A stretch of DNA of 64,000 bases from Escherichia coli (GTDB lineage Bacteria > Pseudomonadota > Gammaproteobacteria > Enterobacterales > Enterobacteriaceae): assembly GCF_001677475.2 (NCBI RefSeq), contig NZ_CP015229.1; one strand, written 5' to 3'. Positions 11,013-43,085 of the stretch are shown here, piece after piece. A program made the translations under genes and the position numbers. The notes under the pieces were generated by a model, which saw only the letters and a program-made list of their open reading frames with translations, had not been told where the DNA came from and did no database searches. The stretch's first letter is position 1. The number at the start of each line of letters is the position of its first letter.

Positions 11013-11879
11013 ATGACAGACAATACTTATCAGCCCGCGAAAGTCTGGACGTGGGATAAATCCGCTGGCGGCGCGTTCGCCAATATCAATCGCCCGGTTT
11101 CTGGTCCGACGCATGAAAAAACGCTGCCCGTTGGCAAACATCCATTGCAACTTTATTCGCTGGGAACGCCGAACGGTCAGAAAGTAACGATTATGCTTGA
11201 GGAGCTGCTGGCGCTGGGCGTTACTGGTGCAGAGTACGATGCCTGGCTGATACGCATAGGCGATGGAGATCAATTCTCCAGCGGCTTTGTCGAAGTGAAC
11301 CCAAATTCGAAGATCCCGGCGCTGCGCGATCATACGCATAATCCGCCGATCCGCGTGTTTGAGTCTGGTTCGATCCTGCTTTATCTGGCAGAGAAATTTG
11401 GCTACTTCTTGCCGCAGGATCTGGCGAAACGTACTGAAGCAATGAACTGGCTGTTCTGGCTACAGGGGGCTGCGCCGTTCCTCGGCGGTGGTTTTGGTCA
11501 CTTTTACCATTACGCGCCGGTGAAAATTGAGTACGCCATCAATCGCTTTACCATGGAAGCCAAGCGCCTGCTCGACGTGCTGGATAAGCAACTGGCGCAG
11601 CATAAGTTTGTTGCGGGCGATGAGTACACCATTGCGGATATGGCGATTTGGCCGTGGTTTGGCAACGTGGTGTTAGGCGGCGTGTATGATGCCGCAGAGT
11701 TTCTTGATGCAGGTAGTTATAAACACGTACAACGCTGGGCGAAAGAAGTAGGCGAACGTCCGGCGGTGAAGCGTGGGCGTATTGTTAACCGCACCAACGG
11801 ACCGCTGAATGAGCAGTTGCATGAGCGCCATGACGCCAGTGATTTCGAGACAAATACAGAAGATAAGCGTCAGGGGTAA
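11013..11879 (+). CDS. yghU: Nu-class glutathione S-transferase-like disulfide reductase (288 aa)
   Basis: Starts MTDNTYQPAKVWTWDKSAGGAFANINRPVSG, matching YghU from memory. Confidence 0.93.
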   Translation: MTDNTYQPAKVWTWDKSAGGAFANINRPVSGPTHEKTLPVGKHPLQLYSLGTPNGQKVTIMLEELLALGVTGAEYDAWLIRIGDGDQFSSGFVEVNPNSKIPALRDHTHNPPIRVFESGSILLYLAEKFGYFLPQDLAKRTEAMNWLFWLQGAAPFLGGGFGHFYHYAPVKIEYAINRFTMEAKRLLDVLDKQLAQHKFVAGDEYTIADMAIWPWFGNVVLGGVYDAAEFLDAGSYKHVQRWAKEVGERPAVKRGRIVNRTNGPLNEQLHERHDASDFETNTEDKRQG

Positions 11880-11904
11880 GGGTTAGCGTTCGTCGCAGCA
11901 AGCC

Positions 11905-11990
11905 ATCCAGGCCGTATAAGACGTTCACGCCGCATCCGGCAATCGAGCACAAGCCTGATGCGACGCTGCCGCGTCTTATCAGGCCTACGA
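11905..11990. repeat. BIME: two REP (repetitive extragenic palindromic) units in inverted orientation
   Basis: gccgtataagacgttcacgccgcatccggc and gcctgatgcgacgctgccgcgtcttatcaggcctacg match the E. coli REP consensus. Confidence 0.8.
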
Positions 11991-12000
11991 AATCTAATCA

Positions 12001-12249
12001 TCACGCGCTGGTAATGTCGTAATCCATTTGGCGCAGCGCGTCTAATGTGGCTTTGGCTTCGTCTTCGTCGATGATACTCATGGCAAATCCGACGTGCACC
12101 AGCACCCACTGGCCCAGCAGATCGGCAGGGTTACCTTCACAAATCAGGGCGATATTCACGTCGCGCTTGATACCACATACTTCAACCTGCGCAAGCTGGT
12201 GAATATCTTCACCGACAGCCAGCACCTGGCCTGGAACGCCAATACACAT
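12001..12249 (-). CDS. hybG: Hydrogenase maturation chaperone, HypC family (82 aa)
   Basis: [11 protein letters not shown]-terminus typical of HypC/HybG. Confidence 0.95.
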
Positions 12250-12289
12250 TGTTAACTCCGGTTATTTCGATTGCCGGACAAACGCGAAA

Positions 12290-12350
12290 AAGAACCTTTA
12301 GCGGGTGTTTCCCCTCACCCTAACCCTCTCCCCGGAGGGGCGAGGGGACC
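12290..12350. repeat. GC-rich palindromic repeat (possibly boxC-type) in the hybF-hybG spacer
   Basis: cccctcaccctaaccctctccccggaggggcgaggggacc contains interlocking inverted repeats. Confidence 0.4.
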
Positions 12351-12382
12351 GTCCGTGCGCTTTTCAAGCGTTGTCCTCAGTC

Positions 12383-12724
12383 TTATTCAACTTCAATACT
12401 TTTGACGATCAGCGAATCGCCGGTATCGACACGCAACCGCTCGCCATGACAGAGCGGACACTGCGCATCGTGCTGATGAATATCCACCACCTGGCTGCAA
12501 TCCCAGCACCAGGCCTGGGCGGGTTTATAGACGATATGTAAATCGCACCCTTGCGCCACCGTTCCGTGGCAGACAATTTCAAAACTAAAACGGACGGCGC
12601 TCTCCTCAACGCAGGAGAGCGCGCCAATTTCCAGCCACACGGCGGTGACGCGCTTAACATCGTGCTGCTCCGCCTGCCGTTGGATAATTTCAACGGCGCT
12701 CTGGCAAAGCGACAACTCATGCAT
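12383..12724 (-). CDS. hybF: Hydrogenase nickel-insertion protein, HypA family (113 aa)
   Basis: MHELSLCQSAVEIIQ plus CxxC...CxxC zinc motif; start taken at Met19 of the track ORF. Confidence 0.93.
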   Translation of the reverse strand: MHELSLCQSAVEIIQRQAEQHDVKRVTAVWLEIGALSCVEESAVRFSFEIVCHGTVAQGCDLHIVYKPAQAWCWDCSQVVDIHQHDAQCPLCHGERLRVDTGDSLIVKSIEVE

Positions 12725-13205
12725 TTTCGCCACTCCTGCGGCCAAATAGCAGGGCACGACGCCCTGCGTGTGGTACATCCGGATTAGTGACTGGCAGCGA
12801 AAGGATCATTCGTGCGCAGTCATCCGTCAGGCGTTGGCCCTCTTCAATCGACATGCTGTGCGAAAGCGGTGACATCAGTGAACAGGAGAGATATTGAGAA
12901 ACACCGTCCAGTTCGCCAACGGTAAAGGTCATGGTGCCATACGGCAGTTGCAGACCGATTTTTTCACTCACTTTGCGCAGCGGCCAGAGTTGATCCGGGC
13001 CGGGGAAGATAACTGCACTCAGCATCCACGGGGTGATTACACACCCCGTCCACTGACCTTCGAACAGCGTAAAGTCAGAAACATACACCGGCATTGAAGG
13101 ATGCAGAAAAGAGAGATCGTGCATCGAACGCCGGGCAATTTCTTCAAACGCTTCCTGTACTTGCGCCTTCGGGGAGGTCTGGAAACCTGCTATCTCTTCA
13201 GTCAT
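12717..13205 (-). CDS. hybE: Hydrogenase-2 operon chaperone (162 aa)
   Basis: MTEEIAGFQTSPKAQVQEAFEEIARRSMHDL; internal Met of track ORF gives the 162-aa K-12 length. Confidence 0.9.
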   Translation of the reverse strand: MTEEIAGFQTSPKAQVQEAFEEIARRSMHDLSFLHPSMPVYVSDFTLFEGQWTGCVITPWMLSAVIFPGPDQLWPLRKVSEKIGLQLPYGTMTFTVGELDGVSQYLSCSLMSPLSHSMSIEEGQRLTDDCARMILSLPVTNPDVPHAGRRALLFGRRSGENA

Positions 13206-13692
13206 GAATCGCCTCCCGTGGGATGGCTTCCACGCCTGATTCGCGCAGCGCAGCCAGAACCTGCTCAAGCGCAGGTTCAATCATTGCTTCAACCGTCGGC
13301 GTTAAGCCGATGTGTGGCTCCAGCGATTCCGGGATCACGCCGACCAGGGTCAGCTTTTTCGGAAACTCACCGGTGAAGCGCAGGGCCGACAATACGTCGG
13401 CCAGGCCAAGCTGATGCGGAGAGATTTTGTTGGTAAACAACGCCGGAACTTCTTCATCCCGCAGGATCATCATCGTTCCCGGCGCGCTCTTCTTCGACAC
13501 AATGGCATCCGCAATGATCAGATGATCGCGATTTGCCATGTCGCCAAGCAGCTCCATTCCCGCCGTGCCGCCATCGAGGATCTCAACATAATCCGGCAGA
13601 ATATATCGTTGCTCTAACGCTTCGACAATCCGCACACCGATGGCTTCATCGGTCAGCAAAATATTGCCGACCCCTAAGACTAAAATACGCAT
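13198..13692 (-). CDS. hybD: Hydrogenase-2 maturation endopeptidase (164 aa)
   Basis: MRILVLGVGNILLTDEAIGVR protease N-terminus; 1-nt overlap with hybC stop. Confidence 0.93.
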   Translation of the reverse strand: MRILVLGVGNILLTDEAIGVRIVEALEQRYILPDYVEILDGGTAGMELLGDMANRDHLIIADAIVSKKSAPGTMMILRDEEVPALFTNKISPHQLGLADVLSALRFTGEFPKKLTLVGVIPESLEPHIGLTPTVEAMIEPALEQVLAALRESGVEAIPREAIHD

Positions 13693-15395
13693 TACAGAAC
13701 CTTCACTGAAACCACTTCGTTGCCGTCGGCATCCACTACGTGTACCGCACAGGCCATGCACGGGTCGAAGGAGTGAATGGTACGCACCACTTCCAGCGGT
13801 TTATTCGGATCGGCAACCGGTGTACCCACCAGCGACTGCTCGTAAGGACCGACGTCATCATTGAAGTTACGTGGGCCAGAGTTCCAGGTTGATGGAACAA
13901 CTGCCTGGTAGTTGCTGATGATACCGTCTTTAATAACCATCCAGTGAGAGAGCATACCGCGCGGTGCTTCGAGGAAACCTACGCCTTTGAACTCACCCGT
14001 TGCCGGAATGTTCGGCTTCACAAAGGTGGTGTGATCGCCTTTGCCGATATTGGTGATCAGTGCACTGTATTGATTTTGCAGGATATCCTGCAATTCGCAG
14101 CAGTGAACGGTACGACCAATAATACGGCCCAGTGTAGAGTGCAGTTGCGCCACTTCCAGCGTGTTACCAGTCAGTTTCTGATAAATCGCAACGATTTCAT
14201 TCAGTTTGTTCTGGGTAGACTCGCGACCTGTCGCCAGTTTTACCAGCATGTTAGCCAGAGGCCCCACTTCTACCGTTTTTCCGTAGAAAGTCGGTGATTT
14301 CACCCAGGAATATTTACCGTCGTCAGACCAACCATCATAAGCCGGAATGGTGGTACCTTCCCACGGTGCCTGCGGCGCTTCGTCTTTATACCAGGAGTGC
14401 TTCGCGCTCTCCTGAATGCCTTTAATCAGGTATTCATCGGAGTGGGAAGTGATCGGGCGATACGAGGACAGATCCGCATTCTCAATGTAGCCGCCCGGGA
14501 ACAGGAAGCTGCCGTTTTTGCTGTCGGTCGGGAATTCCGGCACGCTCAGGTAGTTCACCGCACCTTTACCGCGCGTCAGCCATTCCGGGTAGAACGCGGC
14601 GATAACCGCGGTATCAACCTTATAAACCTGCTCAACAAAGTCGCTCAGTTTGTCGATGAAAGACTTGATGTACATCAGGCGCTCAAGGTTCAGCACGCCC
14701 AACCCGTCGAGGTTGATTGGGTTCGCGACACCACCCACTGCCAGGTTCTGAATGTGCGGCGTTTTACCGCCCAGCAGCGCCACGACGCGGTTAGCGTCAC
14801 GCTGGCACTCCAGCGCCTGCAGGTAGTGCGCTACCGCAATCAGGTTCACTTCCGGCGGCAGTTTCATCGCCGGGTGACCCCAGTAGCCATTAGCGAAAAT
14901 ACCCAACTGACCGCTGGCAACCAGATCTTTGATCTTGTTCTGAACTTTGGTGAACTCTTCCGGGCTGTTCAGGTGCCAGGTCGAAACACCTTTCAGCATT
15001 TCGGAGGCTTTGGTTGGGTCAGCTTGCAGTGCAGAAGTGATATCCACCCAGTCCAGCGCCGAAAGTTGATAGAAATGAACGATATGGTCATGCGTGGTGT
15101 GCGCAGCCAGAATGATGTTACGGATGTATTGCGCGTTAACCGGAACGTCGATATTCAGTGCACTTTCTGCCGCACGAACGGAAGACAGCGCGTGAGTGGT
15201 AGTACATACGCCACAGATACGTTGCACAATCATCCATGCATCGCGCGGATCGCGGTTTTTCACGATCTCTTCCATGCCGCGCCACATGGTACCGGAAGCC
15301 CATGCTTTCGAAACGACGCCATTTTCGATTTCGCAATCGATGCGTAAATGCCCCTCAATACGGGTTACCGGATCAATAGTAATTCTCTGGCTCAT
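13692..15395 (-). CDS. hybC: [NiFe] hydrogenase-2 large subunit (567 aa)
   Basis: RIEGH N-terminal motif and C-terminal DPCMACAVH nickel-binding motif. Confidence 0.97.
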   Translation of the reverse strand: MSQRITIDPVTRIEGHLRIDCEIENGVVSKAWASGTMWRGMEEIVKNRDPRDAWMIVQRICGVCTTTHALSSVRAAESALNIDVPVNAQYIRNIILAAHTTHDHIVHFYQLSALDWVDITSALQADPTKASEMLKGVSTWHLNSPEEFTKVQNKIKDLVASGQLGIFANGYWGHPAMKLPPEVNLIAVAHYLQALECQRDANRVVALLGGKTPHIQNLAVGGVANPINLDGLGVLNLERLMYIKSFIDKLSDFVEQVYKVDTAVIAAFYPEWLTRGKGAVNYLSVPEFPTDSKNGSFLFPGGYIENADLSSYRPITSHSDEYLIKGIQESAKHSWYKDEAPQAPWEGTTIPAYDGWSDDGKYSWVKSPTFYGKTVEVGPLANMLVKLATGRESTQNKLNEIVAIYQKLTGNTLEVAQLHSTLGRIIGRTVHCCELQDILQNQYSALITNIGKGDHTTFVKPNIPATGEFKGVGFLEAPRGMLSHWMVIKDGIISNYQAVVPSTWNSGPRNFNDDVGPYEQSLVGTPVADPNKPLEVVRTIHSFDPCMACAVHVVDADGNEVVSVKVL

Positions 15396-39892: not shown

Positions 39893-40000
39893 GGTATTCC
39901 TTACCGGAGAAATTATAAGCCCAATAACAATACGCCTGTGGCATTGTTCGCTCAAACTTATCGCGAGTGATTTGGCTCACACTCCGGTAAAGATTCCCCA

Positions 40001-40483
40001 TCACGCTAACGGTACATAAACATCCGTTTCCAGTCGCTGCTCTGTCACCCCTTCGGCAAGATTGGTGTAGTGAAACAGAATCGGTGCTTTACGCATTTTC
40101 TCGCCGCTTGCAGGCAGCCAGTGGCGAATAATGCCCCATATCGTGTGTGAAATATCGTCCAGCTCGCCAACATGGCGGGTAACAGCATAACGCCCACCGG
40201 TAAGTTCGCCATTACTCACGCCATAACGATTATCGGGGATCGGTTCGCTAACGCTGCCGCAGATATCAAAGCGAAACGCTTCCGGTGCGGTGGTGGCAGG
40301 GTCGTCCCAGGCGACGCCAAAAGTCTGGCTTTGGTTAACAGGAGAAAGCCCCGTCTCTTTACGCCACATGATAAATTTCGCCACGCTGTAGTTGAGCAAC
40401 TCAGGGCTACAGCGGTGCGGCAACATCGCCACAGGGATTGATGGGAAATCGATAATATTTACATCCAGTGTCAGGTTTGTCAT
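40001..40483 (-). CDS. ygiV: GyrI-like small-molecule-binding domain protein (160 aa)
   Basis: SbmC/GyrI-like fold; position upstream of ygiW. Confidence 0.85.
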   Translation of the reverse strand: MTNLTLDVNIIDFPSIPVAMLPHRCSPELLNYSVAKFIMWRKETGLSPVNQSQTFGVAWDDPATTAPEAFRFDICGSVSEPIPDNRYGVSNGELTGGRYAVTRHVGELDDISHTIWGIIRHWLPASGEKMRKAPILFHYTNLAEGVTEQRLETDVYVPLA

Positions 40484-40535
40484 TTTGCCTCCCTGCGAAA
40501 TTATTCCCGGGAACGCGTCCCGGGAGCGGTAACAA

Positions 40536-40928
40536 TTACGGATTTACTTTGCGGATCTGTTTGACGTCAATTTCAACAGAATTCCAGTCTTTATCGACTT
40601 CCCCCTGAATCTCAACCGTATCTTTCGGCGTCACCGTCACGCCGTTCCAGCGTTTGTGGTCGATATCAACATTGATAGTACCGCTGGCATCTTTGAACAC
40701 GTAGAGATCGTCAGAGATGCGTTCAACGATATTGCCGCGCAGGGTTACCCAGGTGTCGTCACGCAGGGATTTTGCGCTTTCTACAGTCGTTACGCTGCCA
40801 TTCGGCCCCTGGAATCCTCCGGCCTGACTTTGCGTTGCCGATGGGCCAGAAAAACCGCCCTGCTCTGCTGCCATCACCGGTGCGCTGCACAGGGCCATTA
40901 CTGCGATTACTGCTGCGAATTTTTTCAT
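40536..40928 (-). CDS. ygiW: BOF (OB-fold) periplasmic stress protein (130 aa)
   Basis: Signal peptide MKKFAAVIAVMALCSAPVMA. Confidence 0.9.
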   Translation of the reverse strand: MKKFAAVIAVMALCSAPVMAAEQGGFSGPSATQSQAGGFQGPNGSVTTVESAKSLRDDTWVTLRGNIVERISDDLYVFKDASGTINVDIDHKRWNGVTVTPKDTVEIQGEVDKDWNSVEIDVKQIRKVNP

Positions 40929-41079
40929 GTTTATTACTCCCTTTAATGTCTGTTTCCGAGCATTTAACAAGATAGTCCTTAACAACTTCTTAAGGGAAAA
41001 AAATAAAATTTAATGCTGTACAGAGCGCGTTACAACACGGTTTACTGGCAGCAAATACGGTTATCGCAGGGATGAAAAA

Positions 41080-41739
41080 ATGCGAATTTTACTGATAGAA
41101 GATGACATGCTGATTGGCGACGGCATCAAAACGGGCCTTAGTAAAATGGGTTTTAGCGTCGACTGGTTTACACAAGGTCGTCAGGGAAAAGAGGCGCTAT
41201 ACAGCGCACCTTATGATGCGGTGATCCTGGATTTAACCTTACCAGGCATGGATGGTCGCGATATTTTGCGCGAATGGCGAGAAAAAGGTCAGCGTGAGCC
41301 GGTATTGATCCTGACCGCGCGCGATGCGCTGGCGGAACGTGTAGAAGGGCTGCGTCTGGGAGCTGACGATTATCTGTGTAAACCTTTTGCGTTGATAGAA
41401 GTCGCCGCCAGGCTAGAAGCTCTGATGCGCCGAACCAACGGCCAGGCCAGCAACGAGCTGCGCCACGGCAACGTCATGCTCGACCCCGGCAAACGTATCG
41501 CCACACTGGCTGGCGAACCCTTAACGCTGAAACCAAAAGAATTTGCCCTGCTGGAATTACTGATGCGTAACGCTGGTCGGGTACTGCCGCGCAAACTGAT
41601 TGAAGAGAAACTGTATACCTGGGACGAAGAGGTCACCAGTAATGCCGTTGAAGTGCATGTGCATCATCTGCGACGCAAACTCGGCAGTGATTTTATTCGT
41701 ACCGTTCATGGTATTGGCTACACATTAGGTGAGAAATGA
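41080..41739 (+). CDS. qseB: Two-component response regulator, OmpR family (219 aa)
   Basis: [15 protein letters not shown] receiver domain plus winged helix. Confidence 0.96.
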
Positions 41740-43085
41740 AATTTACCCAACGTCTTAGTCTGCGAGTCAGGCTGACGCTAATCTTTTTAATTCTGGCCTC
41801 GGTGACCTGGCTGCTTTCCAGCTTTGTCGCCTGGAAACAAACAACGGATAACGTCGATGAGTTGTTCGACACCCAACTGATGCTGTTTGCCAAACGGTTA
41901 AGTACGCTCGATCTCAACGAAATCAACGCGGCAGATCGCATGGCACAGACGCCAAATAAATTAAAACACGGTCATGTTGATGACGATGCGCTGACCTTTG
42001 CCATCTTTACCCACGACGGCAGAATGGTCCTTAACGATGGCGATAACGGAGAAGATATTCCCTATAGCTATCAGCGGGAAGGTTTTGCTGACGGGCAACT
42101 GGTCGGTGAAGACGATCCCTGGCGTTTTGTCTGGATGACCTCACCTGATGGCAAATATCGCATCGTTGTTGGTCAGGAATGGGAATACCGCGAAGACATG
42201 GCGCTGGCGATTGTTGCCGGGCAATTGATCCCGTGGCTGGTCGCACTGCCGATTATGTTAATCATCATGATGGTACTACTGGGTCGTGAACTCGCGCCGC
42301 TGAACAAACTGGCGCTGGCACTACGTATGCGTGACCCTGACTCGGAAAAACCACTAAACGCGACGGGCGTACCTAGCGAAGTGCGTCCACTGGTTGAGTC
42401 GTTGAATCAACTGTTCGCCCGCACACATGCGATGATGGTTCGTGAACGACGCTTTACCTCCGACGCAGCTCACGAACTACGTAGCCCGTTAACGGCGCTG
42501 AAAGTGCAAACCGAAGTTGCGCAGCTCTCTGACGATGATCCGCAGGCGCGGAAAAAAGCGCTGCTTCAATTACATTCCGGAATCGATCGCGCTACTCGTC
42601 TGGTTGATCAACTGCTCACGCTATCGCGGCTGGACTCACTGGATAACCTTCAGGACGTCGCGGAGATCCCGCTTGAAGATCTCCTGCAATCGTCGGTGAT
42701 GGATATTTACCACACGGCGCAGCAGGCGAAAATTGACGTGCGACTGACACTCAATGTCCAGGGCATCAAACGCACCGGACAACCGCTATTGCTAAGTTTG
42801 TTGGTGCGAAACCTTCTGGATAACGCCGTGCGTTACAGTCCACAGGGTAGCGTGGTAGACGTCACGCTGAATGCCGATAATTTCATCGTGAGGGATAACG
42901 GCCCCGGTGTGACGCCAGAGGCACTGGCGCGAATTGGCGAACGCTTCTATCGCCCACCCGGGCAAACCGCTACCGGCAGTGGACTTGGGCTATCGATTGT
43001 CCAGCGAATCGCCAAATTGCATGGCATGAATGTTGAGTTTGGGAATGCGGAACAAGGTGGATTTGAGGCGAAGGTAAGCTGGTAA
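41736..43085 (+). CDS. qseC: Sensor histidine kinase (449 aa)
   Basis: H-box AAHELRSPL; 4-nt overlap with qseB. Confidence 0.96.

Follow-up and report, generated by a model that had tools for sequence, protein, structure and literature searches.

The window analyzed here is a stretch of 64,000 nucleotides from Escherichia coli, which carries the hyb operon on its minus strand. Within this operon, hybF (12383..12724, minus strand; annotated as hypA in RefSeq) precedes hybG (12001..12249, minus strand), the latter being delineated from the list of open reading frames (ORFs) and the annotation of the matching region in strain N3. The stop codon of hybF occupies 12383-12385 (TTA on the plus strand, TAA on the minus strand) and the start codon of hybG 12247-12249, leaving a spacer of 133 bp at 12250-12382. 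An earlier reading made from the letters of the window (hereafter the sequence-only reading) had pointed to this gap as an anomaly in an otherwise compact operon, and both its coordinates and the contrast it drew are correct: hybE/hybF and hybD/hybE each overlap by 8 nt and hybC/hybD by 1 nt in the annotation of strain N3, while the ORF coordinates in the window give overlaps for hybB/hybC and hybA/hybB and a gap of 2 nt for hybO/hybA. The GC-rich palindromic repeat that it had described in the spacer is equally real, in that a GC-rich string occupies about 12311-12347 and an 11-nt inverted repeat is formed by 12310-12320 and 12338-12348. As the genes lie on the minus strand, what appears in the hyb mRNA is the reverse complement of this string, which is G-rich.

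The sequence-only reading had also proposed comparing the junction across E. coli genomes, with the suggestion that the spacer might be an insertion relative to strains in which the two genes abut. Searching 5,426 complete E. coli genomes with a 331-bp query across the junction, we obtained matches in 5,421 of them; at least 80% of the query was covered in only 19, and the remaining genomes matched it in two pieces spanning 210 bp. The filled allele is hence rare (19 of 5,426 genomes, or 0.35%): about 5,400 genomes have a 12-nt junction and 99.6% are without the element between hybF and hybG. Alignment of the window with the empty allele yields a clean difference of 121 bp, made up of a 116-bp body and a 5-bp direct repeat. 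The empty allele reads ...CCGGTTATTCAACTT..., whereas the filled allele reads ...CCGGTTATT / TCGATTGCC...CCTCAGTC / TTATTCAACTT..., with slashes at the boundaries. The body thus defined (12267..12382, minus strand) runs in mRNA sense from GACTGAGGACAACGC through the core to GTCCGGCAATCGA, and the ends of the element are GACTGAGGAC...GGCAATCGA. On either side of it stands a copy of TTATT, the left at 12262..12266 and the right at 12383..12387, which occurs once in the empty alleles and is a putative target-site duplication; 12383-12385 within the right copy constitute the hybF stop codon. In mRNA sense, the filled junction is accordingly GAA TAA, the element, AATAA, CCGGAGTTAACA and ATG. The body is divisible into a 36-nt 5' arm in the orientation of the mRNA (12347..12382, minus strand), a 36-nt core (12311..12346, minus strand) and a 44-nt 3' arm (12267..12310, minus strand; GAAACACCCGC...GTCCGGCAATCGA), which pairs imperfectly with the 5' arm in the predicted fold. 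The element is extragenic, being placed after the stop codon of hybF and before the Shine-Dalgarno sequence of hybG, and ends 17 nt upstream of the hybG start codon. HybF, with its C-terminus (...IEVE before the stop) unchanged, the Shine-Dalgarno sequence of hybG (GGAG, 12256..12259, minus strand; CCGGAGTTAACAATG in filled and empty alleles alike) and the hybG start codon are all intact in the filled allele. RefSeq annotates no feature under the spacer match.

The spacer is a copy of the BoxC repeat, a long-known and functionally unexplained family that is rare at hybF-hybG. The same motif has been given four names in succession: BoxC in the 1990s, PIT (Hoyne/Maher 2000, 2002), TMECO (Holder 2015, PMC4666352) and HPG1/HPG2 (Kaplan 2016, PMC5100583), of which PIT stands for potential intrastrand triplex element and HPG1/HPG2 for a G-quadruplex/hairpin switch (PMC5100583). 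The core at 12311..12346 (CCCTCGCCCCTCCGGGGAGAGGGTTAGGGTGAGGGG) is of type A mm (= HPG1) and fits the TMECO consensus CCCTCNCCC-N3-6-GGGNGAGGG-N3-GGGNGAGGG, reading CCCTCGCCC-CTCCG-GGGAGAGGG-TTA-GGGTGAGGG-G on the minus strand. It is identical to TMECO no. 23 of K-12 in Table 1 of PMC4666352, which is the copy between fimH and gntP; the published CD and NMR work used oligonucleotides of the type A mm sequence. At up to 3 mismatches, the core motif occurs once in the 64-kb window against 0.00 occurrences expected from shuffles, and is thus not a chance match. The sequence-only reading had further proposed a search for other copies, and these abound: blastn of the spacer finds 79,879 places across 5,418 E. 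coli genomes, the median being 16 in each (range 1-29).

Its closest relative is the fimH-gntP copy, with 86% identity over 85 nt and homology starting exactly at the insertion boundary (GACTGA...). An alignment of ten K-12 copies reveals a shared unit wider than the 36-nt core, which is preceded by some 35 nt that terminate in ..GCAC.GAcGGTC and followed by GAAAa.CCGC; beyond these the outer arms diverge. The hyb copy and the ten K-12 copies have in common ..GCACGGACGGTC before the core and GAAAc.CCGC after it, and the 5' arm as a whole is weakly conserved (..GAtGaCAAA..AAAA..GCAC.GAcGGTC) in an alignment of K-12 and Pseudocitrobacter copies. The hyb copy shares with the family the core, identical to that of a K-12 copy, the ..CGGaCGGTC prefix and the GAAA suffix, along with an extragenic, multi-copy distribution in which copy number varies between strains and some copies reside in operons (pstA-pstB, yihS-yihR). 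It differs in having longer arms, with a total of 116 bp as against the 36-nt core or the 56-bp BoxC, and in a presence/absence polymorphism that is unusually clean and has a 5-bp duplication. The published papers, in their available text, contain no description of such a case and read the polymorphisms as deletions. The locus is absent from K-12 and from the table entries published for the motif in the available portions of PMC4666352 and PMC5100583. A universal spacer, belonging to an annotated repeat family and having no effect on hybG, was the outcome that the sequence-only reading had set against its own functional proposal. What we find is mixed in this respect: the repeat family is indeed a known one with no demonstrated effect on expression, but the spacer is rare and unannotated in RefSeq.

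Comparable extragenic repeats are found in the REP/BIME and REPIN classes, which are likewise GC-rich palindromes, often beside stop codons and sometimes intercistronic; the occurrence of the BoxC core as inverted doublets in Pseudomonas and many Enterobacteriaceae adds a specific likeness to REPINs. Nevertheless, the hyb element differs from REP/BIME in sequence, with the REP-derived Rfam covariance model naRNA4 matching only 11910-11985 in this region and not the spacer, and REP insertions are not expected to leave duplications. The naRNA4 match (70 bits, above the gathering score) marks a genuine REP element in the yghU-hybG intergenic region. Between the same two genes, strain N3, one of the carriers of the filled allele, has a transposase gene of IS621 (IS110 family), an insertion not present in the window. 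The sole Rfam hit in the spacer, Antizyme_FSE, is sub-threshold (24 bits against a gathering score of 40) and recurs weakly on an Enterobacter BoxC; we discarded it as an effect of GC-rich composition and structure.

Beyond E. coli, an exact-pattern scan of one genome per species recovered the core at 120 or more loci. Among the matches listed are those from Enterobacter, Phytobacter, Pluralibacter, Cedecea, Pseudocitrobacter, Pseudomonas, Stutzerimonas, Devosia, Azospirillum and Asticcacaulis, as well as from metagenome-assembled genomes (MAGs) assigned to Kuenenia, to Anaerolineae/Chloroflexota and to an uncultured bacterium (isolate RUG14125, with AT-rich flanks). The flanks are taxon-specific, which indicates that these matches are not contamination; conservation of the motif across taxa is already noted in PMC4666352 and PMC5100583. 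In Pseudomonas species, a conserved inverted doublet of about 190 bp has the 36-nt core at its right end; this doublet consists of a type-B-like motif in reverse complement, followed by an 85-nt spacer and the type A core. The palindrome of this doublet reaches into GATCC...GGATC flanks, giving it a REPIN-like architecture, and the stretch CGGTCAGTC before its core resembles the 5' arm of the hyb element. Many Enterobacteriaceae copies are similar inverted doublets. In Enterobacter (E. cloacae, E. asburiae and Enterobacter sp. MGH 24), the core is situated close to the 5' end of a larger intergenic repeat (about 450 bp), whose copies are 78-98% identical and one of which is interrupted by about 1.4 kb; this repeat has no Rfam match and no convincing ORF. 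As further variants, the Anaerolineae MAG has doublets (type-B-like inverted motif plus type A) arrayed in tandem, repeating about every 90 nt, and in the Chloroflexota MAG (GAGGGTT)n tandem repeats precede the core.

A second clean pair of alleles was found at pstA-pstB (K-12, NC_000913.3 3908140-3908890), where BoxC presents as a 92-bp presence/absence polymorphism, with about half of the E. coli genomes being without it. On either side of the 92 bp stands an 8-bp direct repeat, AACCGTGT; it overlaps the stop codon of pstA, and the 3' arm of the element contains a third copy of it. The pstA reading frame ends at TAA in the empty allele and, in the filled one, at a TGA to which the element contributes two bases; the PstA protein is identical in both. 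The empty targets of hyb (GAATAACCGGAGTTAACA) and pst (GAATAAACACGGTTAACA) both conform, in mRNA sense, to GAATAA-N6-TTAACA; however, the insertion points are about 6 nt apart and the elements oppositely oriented, so that this shared motif is probably a coincidence. Other loci did not furnish clean filled/empty pairs: adk-hemH is a complex replacement; the yihS-yihR junction is messy, falling in the T-run of a terminator; and at zntA-tusA and aaeR-tldD BoxC is essentially fixed, the longer zntA-tusA allele being a REP/BIME insertion. Such an insertion is seen in some strains, strain 998 among them, in which an extra REP/BIME cluster of about 165 bp sits directly beside the fixed BoxC copy at zntA-tusA.

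These two clean cases with flanking repeats, hyb and pstA-pstB, suggest insertion with a staggered cut, in the manner of a mobile element. We estimate the probability of a perfect repeat of 5 nt or more arising by chance at a defined junction as approximately 0.001. In several respects the hyb element is reminiscent of MITEs such as ERIC/IRU, Correia/NEMIS and RUP: it is small, non-coding, palindromic over its whole length and dispersed in many copies, has a short flanking direct duplication and sits within a transcription unit. It departs from them in its weak terminal inverted repeats, poorly conserved termini and a duplication of 5 bp as against 8 bp at pstA-pstB, and no cognate transposase was found at the 120 loci listed. 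The best local alignment between the two arms (GGAC-AACGC..GAAAA) is equaled in score by 58 of 2,000 shuffles and is thus weakly significant, and neither the termini nor the duplication length are constant among copies. Across the 5,426 complete E. coli genomes we found no other place that covers 80% or more of the element and could have been its donor; an exact 26-mer from the 3' arm had 0 hits in the JGI metagenomes; and a local blastn against the 120 loci listed from other genera matched the core and about 10 nt on either side only. The intervals of 250-5,000 bp between inverted cores at these 120 loci, a small sample, contained ordinary host genes or nothing, judged by eye, with no transposase among them. 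To our knowledge, no cognate transposase of the BoxC family has been described. Taken together, the differing duplication lengths, weak inverted repeats, variable termini and the lack of a donor or a transposase in these searches argue against a classical MITE.

Several of the same observations could be accommodated by arrival without a transposase, either through template switching after a replication stall at a BoxC elsewhere or through microhomology-mediated repair, with TTATT then being a junction microhomology rather than the duplication of a staggered cut. The unequal repeat lengths (5 and 8 bp), the additional AACCGTGT within the 3' arm of the pstA-pstB element itself, the outer arms that vary between copies and the absence of a transposase at the 120 loci listed would all be consistent with such a route; and Holder et al. 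(PMC4666352) tie the motif to polymerase stops and local instability. Yet, no locus with matching arms that might have served as donor was found in the 5,426 genomes, a staggered cut classically leaves perfect direct repeats at either end, and the insertion boundary coincides with the start of the family homology. On balance, we regard arrival without a transposase as unlikely, though deserving serious consideration.

As to what the element does in the operon, the sequence-only reading had offered three roles: an RNA stability element, an attenuator or an internal promoter for hybG. The last two find no counterpart in the spacer. No sigma-70 promoter (-35/-10 hexamers with 16-18 nt spacing) is seen on either strand of 11850-12800, and no intrinsic terminator (GC-rich stem followed by a U-tract) in the spacer. 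The sole terminator-like site in 11850-12800, a hairpin with T-run (GCGCTCTCCTGCGTTGAGGAGAGCGC CGTCCGTTTT) at 12597-12622 on the minus strand, is inside the hybF coding sequence and probably fortuitous, given a chance expectation of about 0.9 such sites for the region. Further, in the account of the work of Hoyne and Maher given by Holder et al. (PMC4666352), PIT elements have neither promoter nor terminator activity and leave RNA polymerase unaffected. RNA folding had been recommended by the sequence-only reading. The 111 nt at 12267-12377, which make up the body except for the 5 nt that come first in the mRNA, are predicted to form one long imperfect hairpin of -46.1 kcal/mol, but its stability on the mRNA strand does not differ significantly from that of dinucleotide shuffles (z = -1.6, or -1.0 for the spacer with flanks), since the sequence is made of G-runs and C-runs and its shuffles fold nearly as stably. 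In crude folds, the hybG Shine-Dalgarno sequence is paired more often in the filled allele, an outcome that varies with the choice of fragment and is unreliable.

The broader form of the regulatory proposal holds that the repeat is a selected cis-regulatory RNA or DNA element, i.e., an intercistronic hairpin, G-quadruplex or triplex that would serve to stabilize the hybOABCDEF mRNA upstream of it, to reduce read-through into hybG by attenuation or to supply an internal promoter. REP hairpins are known to act as intercistronic stabilizers elsewhere, and here the mRNA is predicted to contain a long GC-rich hairpin, while the G-rich strand is the non-template one and is carried in the transcript. 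Kaplan et al. 2016 (PMC5100583) speculate that intra-operon copies could be terminators. Against this stand the lack of any promoter-like site or stem with U-tract in the spacer, the unremarkable z-scores of the fold, the inactivity reported for PIT elements in PMC4666352 and the 99.6% of E. coli genomes that do without the element at this position. Moreover, the copies that K-12 already tolerates inside operons, at pstA-pstB (pstSCAB-phoU) and yihS-yihR (yih), are C-rich in the pst and yih mRNAs as against G-rich in the hyb mRNA, so that operon copies occur in both orientations relative to transcription. A selected regulatory role is hence improbable. From the sequence, no such role at hybG is indicated, and the element may still exert polarity on hybG or stabilize the upstream mRNA.

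The direction of the change can be read from the outgroups. The hybF-hybG spacer is 27 nt in Salmonella and 30 nt in Citrobacter, with BoxC in neither, and a divergent assembly labeled E. coli has the identical 12-nt junction without BoxC. The element is thus an insertion, as the sequence-only reading had surmised, and is derived rather than ancestral; the rarity of the filled allele and the 12-nt junction of about 5,400 genomes accord with this. It could be argued, conversely, that the 133-bp spacer is the ancestral state and was lost from most E. coli through slippage between the TTATT repeats, as a deletion between 5-bp direct repeats would yield exactly the two alleles seen, and the pstA-pstB polymorphism is classed under 'intergenic deletions' by Holder et al. 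(PMC4666352). We consider this very improbable, given that Salmonella, Citrobacter and the divergent Escherichia assembly are all without the element, the last with an identical junction, and that carriers make up just 0.35% of genomes. Practically no credence can be given to a small protein encoded by the plus-strand ORFs at 12271-12405 (44 aa) or 12305-12541 (78 aa), since these ORFs, though present, are antisense to hybF, translate repeat sequence (PLTLTLSPEGRGD) and have neither a ribosome-binding site nor a conservation argument behind them.

Relative to the window, six carriers show 5 variable sites in the element and flanks that differ by 1.5-2.6%; the insertion allele is found on several different flanking haplotypes; and the genomes closest to the window over the adjacent 2 kb are non-carriers. 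Hence, the hyb allele is either old or has spread through recombination, and it is tolerated. Carriers in the collection also share the window-specific differences at 12061, 12076, 12097, 12482 and other positions. Separately, at 12400-14400 and 40000-43000, the window is at most 98.4-98.7% identical to each of about 5,420 complete E. coli genomes. Its lineage is therefore without a representative among them, and possibly belongs to a divergent or cryptic Escherichia.

In conclusion, we consider it likely that the spacer is a 116-bp non-coding BoxC copy that entered the junction of hybF and hybG, 12 nt long at the time, in an ancestral lineage of E. coli and has persisted as a near-neutral passenger. 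The insertion duplicated 5 bp (TTATT; AATAA in mRNA sense), including the hybF stop codon, so that HybF ends normally. We propose the following consequences. The element would be co-transcribed in the hyb mRNA, where it would form a long imperfect hairpin of about -46 kcal/mol with the C-block/G-block core at its tip. It would part hybF termination from hybG initiation by 133 nt, and hybG would then have to rely on its own ribosome-binding site. The effect on hybG is probably small, with the element being tolerated as a passenger, selfish or neutral, and not acting as a regulator. The most likely route of its arrival would be a cut-and-fill insertion that leaves a short duplication, in the manner of a non-autonomous mobile element.

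For the hyb operon itself this is of little consequence: the carriers retain intact hybF and hybG, and the insertion has evidently been long tolerated. The repeat family too was known, having been described four times since the 1990s without its origin or function being accounted for. What is new is a rare, unannotated locus and evidence, suggestive and from two loci, for gain by insertion with flanking duplications. The hyb allele, in being clearly derived, precisely bounded and accompanied by a duplication, argues for gain and not only for loss by instability. The filled and empty alleles also constitute a natural pair for the effect of the motif on transcription, mRNA stability and translational coupling in an operon. 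More tentatively, we advance the possibility that the BoxC/TMECO family consists, or until recently consisted, of non-autonomous mobile elements whose insertion leaves short target duplications, often at stop codons. Were this so, the hyb (5-bp) and pstA-pstB (8-bp) alleles would be preserved insertion events, and what has been termed 'triplex-induced genomic instability' would largely be gain and loss by insertion. The inverted doublets of Pseudomonas and Enterobacteriaceae would then represent the complete REPIN-like mobile unit, moved by a putative enzyme, and such mobility could explain the near-identical core across phyla.
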